Shown here: positions 4,832-19,299 of the stretch, one piece after another
Layout of the letters: each line of letters starts with the position of its first letter
How positions within the stretch are numbered: the first letter of the stretch is position 1
NCBI GenBank assembly: GCA_964016885.1
Contig: OZ024750.1
Span: 30,690,099 to 30,754,000, forward strand
From: Eledone cirrhosa
Taxonomy: Eukaryota
Length of the DNA: 63,902 nucleotides
Reading direction: 5' to 3'
Program-made: the position numbers and the translations under genes
The notes under the pieces: generated by a model
What the model was told of the DNA's origin: nothing
The model's database searches: none
What the model saw: only the letters and a program-made list of their open reading frames with translations

Positions 4832-7033
4832 ATTGAAAGACTTCGCCAGGTGGTGCTATTAAGTTAGACATGGCCTGGGCCAATACTGGCCAAAACATTT
4901 CAAAGTTATTCAAAGTTATATATACATATATATATATACATATATATACATATATATATATATATATACATATATATATATATATATATACATATATATA
5001 TATACATATATATATATATACATATATATATATATATATATATATATACATATATATGTACATATATATATATATATATATATATATATATATATATATA
5101 TATATATATATATATATATATATATACATATATATATATATATATATATATATACATATACATATAAATATATATATGTACATATATATATATATATATA
5201 TATATACATATATATATATATACATATATATATATGTATATACATATATATATACATATATAATATACATATATATATATACATATATATATATACATAT
5301 ATATATATATACATATATATATATACATATATACATATAATATATATATATACATATACATATATATATATATATACATATACATATATACATATATATA
5401 TATACATATATATATATATATATATACATATATATACATATATATACATATATATATATATATACATATATATATATATATATACATGTATATATATATA
5501 TACATATATATATATATATATATATATATACATATATATATATATATATACATATATATATATATATATATATACATATATATTATATATATACATATAT
5601 ATATATATACATATATATATATATATATACATATATATATATATATACATATATATATATATATATATACATATATATACATACATATATATATATATAT
5701 ATATATATATATATACATATATATATATATACATATATATATATATATATATATATATATACATATATATATATACATATATATATATACATATATATAT
5801 ACATATATACATATATATATATATACATATATATATATACATATATATATATATACATATATATATATATACATATATATATATATATATACATATATAT
5901 ATATATACATATATATATATATACATATATATACATATATATATATATATATACATATATATATATATATACATATATATATATATATATATACATATAT
6001 ATATATATATATACATATATATATATATATATATATAATTATACATATATATATATATATATATACATATCTATATATATACATATATATATATGTATAT
6101 ATACATATATATATACATATATACATATATATATATATATATATATACATATATATATATACATACATATATATATATATATATATATACATATATATAT
6201 ATATACATATCTATATATATATATACATATATATATATATATATACATATATATATATATACATACATATATATATATATATATATATATATATATACAT
6301 ACATATATATATATATATATATATATATATATATATATATATACATACATATATATATATATATACATATATATATATATATATATATATATATATACAT
6401 ATATATATATATATATATATATATATATACATACATATATATATATATATACATATATATATATATATATATATATATACATATATATATATATACATAC
6501 ATATATATATATATATACATATATATATATATATATACATATCTATATATATATATACATATATATATATATATATATATATACATATATATATATATAC
6601 ATATATATATATATATATATATATACATACATATATATATATATATACATACATACATATATATATATATATACATACATATATATATATATATATACAT
6701 ACATACATATATATATATATATATATACATATATATATATATATATATATACATATATATATATATATATATACATATATATATATATATATATACATAT
6801 ATATGTATATACATACATATATATATATACATGTATATATATAGATAATTTAATATATCAACTAACATAAGCGCACCGATGCACGTCCATTCCAGCAAAT
6901 ACACAGGTTATGTCATAGTACCTAGGTGGTTCAATGCAGGAGGATGCAGAACAATAATATAAAAGACGTAAAATAAGAAAATATTTTTTTTTAAATTTTT
7001 TAAAAAATTTTTTACTTACTTACTTAAATTTTC

Positions 7034-7115
7034 ACTCCAACTAATTAGTTTCTGCAATGGGATAAAGACAGTTACGTAATCCAACTGTCGAGAATTCATT
7101 GCGTCATCAGGGAGT
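7034..7115 (-). ncRNA. Type I hammerhead ribozyme
   Basis: ACTCC-CTGATGA-C-GCAATG...GACAGTT/AACTGTC...CATTGC-A-GAAA-CTAATTAG-TT-GGAGT; stems I, II and III all pair, GUU cleavage triplet. Confidence 0.88.
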
Positions 7116-7218
7116 CTATTCTCAGCTGAGTCTCCAGGCAATGCGCGGACACTGGCGGCTCATATAAAAATAATAATAATTCGGTAGATAGAACAGCTGG
7201 AGACTCAGCTGAGAATAG

Positions 7219-7300
7219 ACTCCCTGATGACGTAATGAATTCTCGACAGTTGGATTACGTAACTGTCTTTATCCCATTGCAGAAACTAATTAGTTGGAGT
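7219..7300 (+). ncRNA. Type I hammerhead ribozyme
   Basis: Same motif; stem II variant GTAATG/CATTGC (G-U pair). Confidence 0.87.
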
Positions 7301-10300
7301 GAAAATTTAAGTAAGTAAGTAAAAAAATTTTTTAAATTTTTTAAAAGATATTTTCTTATTTTACGTCTTTTATACATATATATATATATATATATATATA
7401 TATATATATATATATATATATATATATATATATATACATATATATATATATATACATATATATATACATATATATACATATATATATACATATATGTACA
7501 TATATATATATACAATATATATACATATATATATATATATATACATATATATATATATATATACATATATATATATACATATATATATATATATATATAT
7601 ATACATATATATGTACATATATATATATATATATATATATATATATATATATATATATATATACATATATATATATATATATATATATATATATATACAT
7701 ATAAATATATATATATACATATATATATATATATATACATATATATATATATACATATATATATATATACATATATATATATATACATATATATATATAC
7801 ATATATATATATACATATATATATATATACATATATATATATATACATAATATATATATATACATATATATATATATACATATATATATATATATATACA
7901 TATATATATATATACATATATATATATATACATATATATACATATATATATATATATATATACATATATATACATATATATACATATATATATATATATA
8001 CATATATATATATATATATACATGTATATATATATATACATATATATATATATATATATATATATATATACATATATATATATATATATACATATATATA
8101 TATATATATATACATATATATTATATATATACATATATATATATATATACATATATATATATATATATACATATATATACATATATATATATATATATAC
8201 ATATATATACATATATATACATATATATATATATATACATATATATATATATATATACATGTATATATATATATACATATATATATATATATATATATAT
8301 ATATATATACATATATATATATATATATACATATATATATATATATATACATATATAGATATATATATACATATATATATATATATACATATATATATAT
8401 ATATATACATATATATACATACATATATATATACATATATATATATATATACATATATATATATATACATATATATATATATATATATATATACATATAT
8501 ATATATACATATATATATATACATATATATATACATATATACATATATATATATACATATATATATACATATATATATATATACATATATATATATATAC
8601 ATATATATATATATATATACATATATATATATATACATATATATATATATACATATATATACATATATATATATATATATATACATATATATATATATAT
8701 ACATACATATATATATATATATATACATATATATATATATATACATATATATATATATATATATATAATTATACATATATATATATATATATACATATCT
8801 ATATATATACATATATATATATGTATATATACATATATATACATATATACATATATATATATATATATATATACATATATATATATACATACATATATAT
8901 ATATATATATACATATATATGTATATATATACATATATATATATACATATATATATATATATATATACATATATATATATATATACATATATATATACAT
9001 ATATATACATATATATATACATATATATACATATATATATATACATATATATACATATATATATATATATATACATATATATATATATATATACATATAT
9101 ATTATATATATACATATATATATATATATACATATATATATATAATACATATATATACATATATATATATATATACATATATATATATATATATACATAT
9201 ATATATATATATACATATATATATATATATATACATATATATACATACATATATATATATATATATATATATATATACATATATATATATATACATATAT
9301 ATATATATATATATATATATATACATATATATATATACATATATATATATACATATATATATACATATATACATATATATATATATACATATATATATAT
9401 ACATATATATATATACATATATATATATATACATATATATATATATATATATACATATATATATATACATATATATATATATATATACATATATATATAT
9501 ATATATACATATATATATATATATACATATATATATATATATATATACATATATATATATATATACATATATATATATATATATATATAATTATACATAT
9601 ATATATATATATATATACATATCTATATATATACATATATATATATGTATATATACATATATATATACATATATACATATATATATATATATATATACAT
9701 ATATATATATACATACATATATATATATATATATATACATATATATATATATATATACATATCTATATATATATATACATATATATATATATATATACAT
9801 ATATATATATACATACATATATATATATATATATATATATATATATACATACATATATATATATATATATATATATATATATATATATATATATACATAC
9901 ATATATATATATATACATATATATATATATATATATATATATACATATATATATATATATATATATATATATACATACATATATATATATATATATACAT
10001 ATATATATATATATATATATATACATATATATATATATACATACATATATATATATATATACATATATATATATATATACATATCTATATATATATATAC
10101 ATATATATATATATATATATATACATATATATATATATACATATATATATATATATATATATATACATACATATATATATATATATACATACATATATAT
10201 ATATATATATATATACATACATATATATATATATATATACATACATACATATATATATATATATATACATATATATATATATATATATACATATATATAT

Positions 10301-17549: not shown

Positions 17550-17631
17550 ACTCCAACTAATTAGTTTCTGCAATGGGATAAAGACAGTTACGTAATCCAA
17601 CTGTCGAGAATTCATTGCGTCATCAGGGAGT
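17550..17631 (-). ncRNA. Type I hammerhead ribozyme
   Basis: Identical to 7034-7115. Confidence 0.88.
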
Positions 17632-17734
17632 CTATTCTCAGCTGAGTCTCCAGGCAATGCGCGGACACTGGCGGCTCATATAAAAATAATAATAATTCGG
17701 TAGATAGAACAGCTGGAGACTCAGCTGAGAATAG

Positions 17735-17816
17735 ACTCCCTGATGACGTAATGAATTCTCGACAGTTGGATTACGTAACTGTCTTTATCCCATTGCAGAA
17801 ACTAATTAGTTGGAGT
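17735..17816 (+). ncRNA. Type I hammerhead ribozyme
   Basis: Identical to 7219-7300. Confidence 0.87.
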
Positions 17817-19299
17817 GAAAATTTAAGTAAGTAAGTAAAAAAATTTTTTTAAATTTTTTAAAAGATATTTTCTTATTTTACGTCTTTTATACATATATAT
17901 ATATATATATATATATATATATATATATATATATATATATATATATATACTTATATATATATATATATATATATACATATATATATACATATATATACAT
18001 ATATATATACATATATGTACATATATATATATACATATATATACATATATATATATATATATACATATATATATATATATATACATATATATATATACAT
18101 ATATATATATATATATATATACATATATATGTACATATATATATATATATATATATATATATATATATATATACATATATATATATATATATATATATAT
18201 ATACATATAAATATATATATATACATATATATATATATATATACATATATATATATATACATATATATATATATATACATATATATATATATACATATAT
18301 ATATATACATATATATATATACATATATATATATATACATATATATATATATACATATATATATATACATATATATATATATACATATATATATATATAT
18401 ATACATATATATATATATACATATATATATATATACATATATATACATATATATATATATATATATACATATATATACATATATATACATATATATATAT
18501 ATATACATATATATATATATATATACATGTATATATATATATATACATATATATATATATATATATATATATACATATATATATATATATATACATATAT
18601 ATATATATATATATATACATATATATTATATATATACATATATATATATATATACATATATATATATATATATACATATATATATATATATATATACATA
18701 TATATATATATATATATACATATATATATATATATACATATATATATATATATATACATATATATACATACATATATATATATACATATATATATATATA
18801 CATATATATATATATACATATATATATATATATATATACATATATATATATACATATATATATATACATATATATATACATATATACATATATATATATA
18901 TACATATATATATATACATATATATATATATACATATATATATATATACATATATATATATATATATACATATATATATATATACATATATATATATATA
19001 CATATATATACATATATATATATATATACATATATATATACATACATATATATATATATATATATACATATATATATATATATATACATATATATATATA
19101 TATATATATATATAATTATACATATATATATATATATACATATCTATATATATACATATATATATATGTATATATACATATATATATACATATATACATA
19201 TATATATATAACTTTGAACTTTGAACTTTGAAATGTTTTGGCCAGTATTGGCCCAGGCCATGTCTAACTTAATAGCACCACCTGGCGAAGTCTTTCAAT

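Follow-up and report, generated by a model that had tools for sequence, protein, structure and literature searches.

A high-copy, non-coding tandem repeat of Eledone cirrhosa with a type I hammerhead fold and a Penelope-like pattern of insertion into TA microsatellites

A stretch of 63,902 nucleotides from Eledone cirrhosa (GenBank assembly GCA_964016885.1, contig OZ024750.1, positions 30,690,099 to 30,754,000 of the forward strand; hereafter the window) contains seven copies of a hammerhead ribozyme motif embedded in a TA microsatellite. We find that these motifs belong to a high-copy tandem repeat that has no coding capacity and carries a type I hammerhead fold; it is very probably a non-autonomous Penelope-like element (PLE), that is, an animal retrozyme of the kind without long terminal repeats (non-LTR), moved into (TA)n by the reverse transcriptase (RT) and endonuclease of a PLE acting in trans. 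The repeat unit, its copy number, the covarying fold, two fixed 3' ends, the adjacency to TA, the rule by which arms are paired and an excess of 5' ends at the predicted cut site are all directly present in the sequence. By sequence-level tests of both, the family appears to work like an animal non-LTR retrozyme and to insert like a PLE. An earlier examination of the window made without database searches (the sequence-only reading) had proposed a ribozyme-bearing, non-autonomous retroelement related to the pseudo-LTRs (pLTRs) of Penelope and to retrozymes, and this proposal is borne out by a family that is non-coding, high in copy number and tandem, with PLE-type inverted arms, a tail and TA targeting.

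Each motif is arranged in the order ACUCC / CUGAUGA / 51-nt helix II / GAAA / CUAAUUAG / UU / GGAGU, with the cut predicted to fall after GUU. A search of the window with the pattern CUGANGA-N40-60-GAAACUAAUUAGU returned seven matches, four on the minus strand and three on the plus strand as had been reported, while 100 dinucleotide shuffles returned none. The type I core order CUGANGA / GAAA / NUH is present in all seven copies, and the stem I (ACUCC/GGAGU), helix IIa (GCAAUG/CAUUGC), helix IIb (GACAGUU/AACUGUC), GUU site and C-A mismatch described by the sequence-only reading were all found, as were its palindromic stem III, ACUAAUUAGU, and the placement of U17 of the first plus copy at 7295. 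The length of 82 nt that it gave for the motif holds for six copies, the copy at 12290-12210 having 81 nt. The change from C-G to U-G, which it had tied to orientation, is instead private to one insertion, and U-G occurs at that pair in none of 90 sampled genomic ribozymes.

The family extends throughout the genome. A 24-mer spanning the ribozyme 3' half, from GAAA to stem I, has 8,753 exact genome matches, a lower bound on the number of ribozyme copies, and its reversed control has none. The first 100 listed matches formed 65 clusters, from which ~5,700 loci are extrapolated, and 60 of these clusters made up our locus sample. The repeat unit is non-coding, tandem and 515-560 bp long (~555 bp in the window), with at least three full units in a row at locus L030. 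In a subfamily-A unit the GC content is 36% and no stop-free stretch is longer than 53 codons, so that the unit lacks the open reading frame (ORF) with RT and GIY-YIG that defines an autonomous PLE. A DNA search with the window unit gave 1,174 candidates, and among the 39 that were scored the full-unit matches were 95-100% identical and lay in tandem arrays. Natural units of five subfamilies, each 515-560 bp, have a mutual identity of 67-88%; a sixth subfamily reference was out of register and was left out. The description of the element as young therefore suits its best copies, which are 95-100% identical to the window unit, and does not suit the subfamilies as compared with one another. Contigs from independent public runs also contain the unit and its subfamily variants. 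Of the four runs compared, whose type is unrecorded, three are from organism A and cover most of the unit. An organism-B run, with 3 contigs only at a depth of ~3 and near identity, was set aside as evidence for a second species.

The ribozyme is conserved in a way that follows its proposed pairing. The 5' core was kept in 90 of 107 ribozyme 3' halves (exactly CUGAUGA in 77 of the 90), and in 4 more it was truncated internally by a TA tract. Helix II of the family is 41-55 nt long and has two parts. At the second pair of helix IIa we found C-G 35 times, U-A 30 times, A-U 23 times and G-C twice, a Watson-Crick pair in 90 of 90, and at the fifth pair U-A 45 times and G-C 38 times, with 7 unpaired or wobble (n=90). 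Two-sided changes occur in both helices IIa and IIb and only one-sided changes in helix I; helix III is invariant, but it lies inside the search anchor. The compensatory changes in helix II extend across subfamilies. Twenty copies were chosen by hand to span the subfamilies; in these, 96.2% of cells were paired, compared with 35-53% in slid controls, and 36 cells had changed on both sides, which was reached by none of 500 shuffles; relatedness among the copies inflates these cell counts. Measures of pair count and pair type in the same 20 copies were not above shuffles (189 and 386 of 500). Taken at the level of sequence, this pattern argues that the hammerhead fold is under selection across subfamilies. 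We also noted two complementary words, GAGAA on the upstream side of helix I and UUCUC within the internal loop of helix II, each found in 74 of 82 copies; they are 97% paired, with no two-sided change. We hypothesize that the GAGAA of the helix I loop may dock by Watson-Crick pairing with the UUCUC of the helix II internal loop. Amphibian monomers are described as requiring looped extensions of helix I that correspond to the loops of helix II (PMC6155905).

A focused Rfam scan of 12020-13105 at E<=10, a check that the sequence-only reading had proposed, gave four matches, all unrelated and none to a hammerhead family, and a scan of the whole window was dominated, among the 150 of 415 matches listed, by microRNA look-alikes in TA repeats. 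The long helix II is the likely cause of this miss. The animal hammerhead motifs described in PMC4209133 have a helix II of 4-8 bp, shorter than the one found here.

The manner in which copies end is what connects the family to PLEs. Among 107 arms, 42 end at unit position 556 (E556), 39 end at position 443 (E443), 23 continue in tandem and 3 end elsewhere, giving two fixed 3' ends, 113 nt apart, that run into (TA)n. A (TA)4 lies within 30 nt of 87 of 96 ends, compared with 1324 of 12000 background positions (11%). In all 33 scored pairs of diverging inverted arms, one arm ends at E443 and the other at E556 (p=1e-10 against 50:50), so that an inverted, 5'-truncated arm is accompanied by a tail at one end only; two further pairs at L122, missed by the script, also fit this rule. 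Copies genome-wide have unique flanks, individual 5' junctions and the same fixed 3' ends. According to Craig et al. (PMC8557442), PLE insertions include partial tandems, have an inverted copy next to them, carry a tail of 30-40 bp at just one of their ends and favour microsatellites, and Frangieh et al. (PMC11167929) describe a tail lying between two internal RT start sites and an enzyme that nicks and extends both strands. The element appears to fit this insertion pattern, with a tail of 113 nt. The LINEs (long interspersed nuclear elements) that flank the islands were considered as mobilisers and rejected, as self-BLAST found no 3' sequence in common with the element.

In order to count 5' ends at the predicted cut site, we took those copies in which none of the three bases preceding a given position agrees with the element. 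In the first subfamily group, the first base after GUU gave 27 matches (25 loci), compared with 3, 9 and 1 at offsets of -3, +3 and -9; corrected for capture, these become 66 versus 6, 20 and 3, and relative to the highest control the Poisson p is 3e-7. Inspection of all 25 loci showed that the upstream partners differ and that both arms start at the cut in 7. The second subfamily group gave 33 matches (28 loci) at the cut versus 1 at offset -3, and inspection of 20 of its loci found 18 true junctions, 6 of them with both arms starting at the cut, bringing such loci to 13 overall. One further control was set aside because its pattern admitted the element's own letters at two positions, 25 of its 29 matches being single substitutions. 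The partners upstream of cut-site ends are the TA tract, unique DNA or the other arm. This excess suggests that the hammerhead likely cuts in vivo. We estimate that ~1% of arms end at the cut and that ~99% run through it, which implies that most templates are uncut or re-ligated, while the frequency with which both arms stop together suggests a single or co-cleaved template. In the anole PLE, insertion in vitro was normal for mutants with a dead ribozyme, and RNA-seq gave no reads ending at the cut (PMC11167929). The low share of cut-site ends agrees with the anole finding that uncut RNA is the main substrate, while the ends themselves add indirect signs of cutting. A capped transcription start, another possible source of these junctions, is unsupported, as an extra G precedes 18 of 60 matches (2 mutated intact copies), approximately as expected from base composition.

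A possible sequence of events is as follows. The element would be transcribed, probably as read-through RNA, and its hammerhead would cut after GUU, probably slowly or as a dimer formed through the stem III palindrome. A PLE protein, probably a dimer, would then nick both strands of a TA tract, and reverse transcription would be primed at two internal RNA sites, E443 and E556, one per strand. Copying would mostly pass through the cut site, the templates being uncut multimers (~50%) or re-ligated circles (~50%), and ~1% of arms would stop at a cleaved 5' end; the two complementary DNA arms would finally be joined head-to-head via short microhomology. It is possible, though we hold this only tentatively, that a single enzyme dimer primes the two strands, each from its own fixed site on one RNA or on a co-cleaved one, that the hammerhead cuts in the germ line, and that its long helix II is a new architecture docked by GAGAA/UUCUC.

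Several observations weigh against this interpretation. The G10.1-C11.1 pair is not found directly flanking the core, where C-A (86 of 90) or A-A (4 of 90) precedes a G-C pair. The sequence-only reading had suggested that the C-A mismatch may lower activity; the mismatch is the state of the family and no damage, and deviations of this type are known, since helix II also has a mismatched base in the axolotl HHR_Amex2 and, as U-U, in other hammerheads of this genome. Hammerheads with U at position 17 are slow to cleave. The predicted minimum-energy fold of the monomer (-25.0 kcal/mol) buries the core, the active fold being 2.5 higher at -22.5, and the best predicted dimer (-65.7 kcal/mol) is inactive, with an active-like dimer at -57.0, which is below two monomers (-50.0 kcal/mol). 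These predicted energies make slow or assisted cleavage plausible, and since the active monomer is predicted to be just 2.5 kcal/mol above the minimum, cleavage in the dimer only is not established. Eight of nine Xenopus retrozyme dimers were uncleaved in vitro (Li et al. preprint, 10.64898/2026.07.22.740005). Conservation across GAAA to stem I is partly circular, because the sample was anchored on that 24-mer, and the sampled loci L090 and L091 look like duplicates of each other. At L132 and L139 the second arm of a diverging insertion ends at neither fixed site, and these were unscored. Two of the 20 inspected loci of the second subfamily group are point-mutated intact copies, and the inspection of junctions covered cut-site matches only, control matches being taken as counted. 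Lastly, no autonomous PLE with this repeat was found among 70 (30 + 20 + 20) of 10,596 GIY-YIG loci, and tblastn of PLE ORFs against element-bearing loci revealed no partner, the PLE fragments nearby having other 3' regions.

A second palindrome, of 10 nt, lies directly 5' of helix I (window 7121-7130 and equivalents) and drives the best predicted, inactive dimer; on these folding predictions it could be a second site of dimerisation.

Three other explanations were considered. That the repeat is the orphaned pLTR of an autonomous PLE, and its copies the 5'-truncated products of that element with no self-standing family, is in our view quite improbable. Most PLE insertions are indeed 5'-truncated with partial tandems and inverted copies (PMC8557442), and the 70 GIY-YIG candidates examined are a fraction of 10,596; however, arms that extend beyond one unit enter another identical unit and never an ORF (23 of 107 arms; L030), and no ORF of the same family adjoins 60 unbiased or 30 best-match loci. 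It is also conceivable that the element is mobilised by a PLE but that its hammerhead is a scaffold for protein binding or folding and does not cut, in which case the 5' ends at that G would be RT stalls or hairpin deletions. We consider this unlikely: stalls or deletions would have to produce a peak lying exactly on the first base after GUU in two subfamily groups, with 1-3 matches a few bases upstream, and the diversity of upstream partners leaves no shared microhomology as an explanation. The catalytic core letters are moreover kept across subfamilies that are 67-88% identical. Such a scaffold would nevertheless accommodate the estimated ~99% of arms that pass through the cut site, the raised +3 control (9 matches), the normal insertion of the ribozyme-dead anole mutants and the lack of RNA reads ending at the cut in that study (PMC11167929).

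A satellite spread by duplication of DNA, or an arrangement produced by the assembly, is highly improbable as an account of the family. Contig C2 carries a 15-kb block of 99.4-99.8% identity, and both this block and the three islands of the window clearly arose by duplication; an assembly gap lies just before the window, and homopolymer indels are frequent. Duplication accounts for the local seven ribozymes but not for a family whose copies across the genome differ in their flanks and 5' junctions yet keep the fixed 3' ends, and whose unit and subfamily variants are present in contigs of independent public runs.

The features of the window that belong to the element are listed in Table 1. Islands 1 and 2 are ~5.2 kb apart within the ~14-kb TA/TACA microsatellite. 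Island 1 ends on the left at the distal start site, E556, and on the right at the proximal start site, E443. Island 2 consists of a full unit (12020-12572, ~555 bp), a partial second unit from 12573, also minus, and a plus arm (12927-13104), and islands 1 and 3 have this structure minus one unit. All three islands have one common inversion junction and carry the U-G variant in the plus arm, and because of that junction the seven ribozymes are not independent; they appear to represent one insertion followed by local duplication, with assembly error possible for part. In its tail, island 1 matches the first of the two units of island 2, while its more internal part matches the second, which suggests loss of a unit by recombination. 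Thus a single insertion would later have been duplicated with its microsatellite, and two of the copies likely lost a unit via recombination between tandem units.

Table 1. Features of the element and its host microsatellite, in window coordinates
Feature	Position	Strand	Remarks
Host (TA)n/TACA microsatellite	4917..19210	.	broken by three islands and a LINE fragment
Island 1	6844..7374		minus arm (unit 556>198) head-to-head with plus arm (264>443)
Type I hammerhead, island 1	7034..7115	-	predicted cut between 7039 and 7038
CTGG microhomology at island 1 inversion junction	7197..7200		identical junction at 12927 and 17713
Type I hammerhead, island 1	7219..7300	+	U-G variant in helix IIa; predicted cut after 7295
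Island 2, probable original insertion	12020..13104		full and partial minus-sense units, then inverted plus arm
113-nt tail between E443 and E556	12020..12132 (approximate bounds)	-	two predicted hairpins
Hammerhead of 81 nt, island 2	12210..12290	-	without one G just past the cut site
Type I hammerhead, island 2	12764..12845	-	
Type I hammerhead, island 2	12949..13030	+	U-G variant
Island 3	17360..17891	.	near-identical to island 1
Type I hammerhead, island 3	17550..17631	-	
Type I hammerhead, island 3	17735..17816	+	U-G variant

The C2 block (G000:C2:338008200-338023100) is a paralogue of window 680-15323 and comprises a LINE, the TA array, islands 1 and 2 and a LINE fragment, the identity given above being that of long matches, in the LINEs and island 2. 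It is either a segmental duplication or a misassembly. The paralogous C2 copy has the G that is missing at 12290-12210, so the loss is a late mutation or an assembly error, and its interpretation as a ligation scar was dropped.

PLEs are abundant in this genome. Besides the GIY-YIG candidates counted above there are PLE ORFs of 636-1096 codons with RT, two of three tested having a Pfam GIY-YIG match, and their cysteine-rich linker resembles what we take to be the Neptune clade. The 3' ends of several of these ORFs run into TA tracts and have hammerheads of their own, some carrying the U3-A8 core variant described in PMC4209133. Comparison of the 3' and 5' regions of nine PLE ORF loci with six natural units found nothing in common. 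A diverged relative of the element near a PLE ORF at L069 was rejected as evidence of a partner, because a TA tract separates the two. Other hammerhead families were also seen. At L062 (5899 and 6358) an unrelated 459-bp tandem unit has a hammerhead with a 50-nt helix II and a tail that ends in TA and has the same two-hairpin layout as the 113-nt tail of the main element; this unit may use the same PLE machinery. Further families occur at L041, L064, L066, L070, L071, L076, L077, L079, L195, L199 and L203; in several of them helix II is long or has U-U mispaired at its base.

The rest of the window is also rich in repeats. Two near-identical full-length LINEs, presumably CR1-like, stand tail-to-tail across the TA array (240-4916, plus; 19210-23864, minus), with a 3' fragment at 28233-28582; at their ends they border on TA tracts. 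In the minus copy a frame of 1045 codons is open and encodes endonuclease and RT domains, and upstream of it lies a Gln-rich ORF that gives a weak Myb-like match; the plus copy is frameshifted. A 5'-truncated RT fragment of a second LINE family (13731-15324, minus) lies within the TA array and is also present in the C2 duplicate. At 25614-25911, in the centre of the 23.8-28.2-kb TA array, there is a 300-bp repeat with inverted arms, and the TACA/TGTA polarity reverses at this point. The repeat has matches at several other loci (93-94% in L014 and L071) and may be another PLE-type end. Short degenerate frames at 50078-50508 (minus) resemble what we take to be a PLE RT thumb, with no Pfam match. 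Minisatellites are found at 30595-31016, 31774-32620, 44847-47077 and 54504-57986, with periods of 42, 94, 91 and 49 bp, the 49-bp unit containing CUGAAGA. An open frame of 485 codons in non-repetitive DNA (37000-38457, plus) is possibly a large host exon.

Compared with known systems, the family combines features of two. Like the animal non-LTR retrozymes described by Cervera & de la Pena (2020, PMC7229834) and in the preprint of Li, Clavereau & Pollet (2026), it consists of non-coding tandem units with one type I hammerhead each, and it shares with them a low GC content, thousands of copies and a short palindromic helix III. The axolotl HHR_Amex2 (PMC7229834) also has a mismatch at the base of helix II, U-U there and C-A here. 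Units of 515-560 nt are larger than the 170-400-nt RNAs of PMC7229834 but are inside the 51-972 bp given in the preprint. The 41-55-nt two-part helix II, the C-A mismatch and the GUU site differ from retrozymes, and the fixed start sites, tail, inverted arms and TA targeting seen here do not form part of the retrozyme descriptions given in these two sources. Retrozymes are expressed as unit-length linear and circular RNAs; among the public runs indexed as containing the present sequence, none is an RNA run.

With endonuclease-bearing (EN+) PLEs and pLTR hammerheads (PMC4209133; PMC8557442; PMC11167929), the family has in common partial tandems, an inverted 5'-truncated copy, a tail at one end, two internal start sites, AT-rich or (TA)n targets, a hammerhead upstream of the 3' end and an unpaired base after A9. 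It differs from them in having no ORF and in its 113-nt tail, compared with 30-40. Here both start sites close on a TA-like word matching the target, unlike those of the anole element, which are non-homologous to the cut DNA, and genomic 5' ends pile up here at the ribozyme cut where the anole element has no RNA reads ending (PMC11167929). Non-autonomous Chlamys PLEs such as MRC1 (PMC8557442) are likewise non-coding PLE derivatives with multicopy head-to-tail insertions; however, they resemble an autonomous family at the 3' end and are mostly without canonical hammerheads, while in our family the hammerhead is conserved and no autonomous partner was found among the 70 GIY-YIG loci examined. 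We found no description of this family in the literature, although the unit may yet be present as an unclassified entry in repeat libraries (Repbase, Dfam and supplements) outside our search; in the main text of the Octopus vulgaris repeat paper (PMC13282606), to which this check was confined, its supplements and repeat library lying outside, the word ribozyme does not appear.

Elements of this class are known, but with the strict start-site rule and the cut-site footprint, two questions that PMC11167929 and the preprint of Li et al. leave open can be put to a direct test: do PLE hammerheads cut in vivo, and do PLE enzymes drive the movement of animal retrozymes? In the present family, thousands of natural insertions are available as evidence on both. 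Ribozymes of this kind would likely be missed by descriptors that assume a short helix II, so similar families may be under-counted. The rule of one start site per arm constrains how PLE enzymes build inverted insertions, and arms that begin at the cut, often both together, represent a DNA footprint of cleavage that can be searched for in any genome bearing PLEs.

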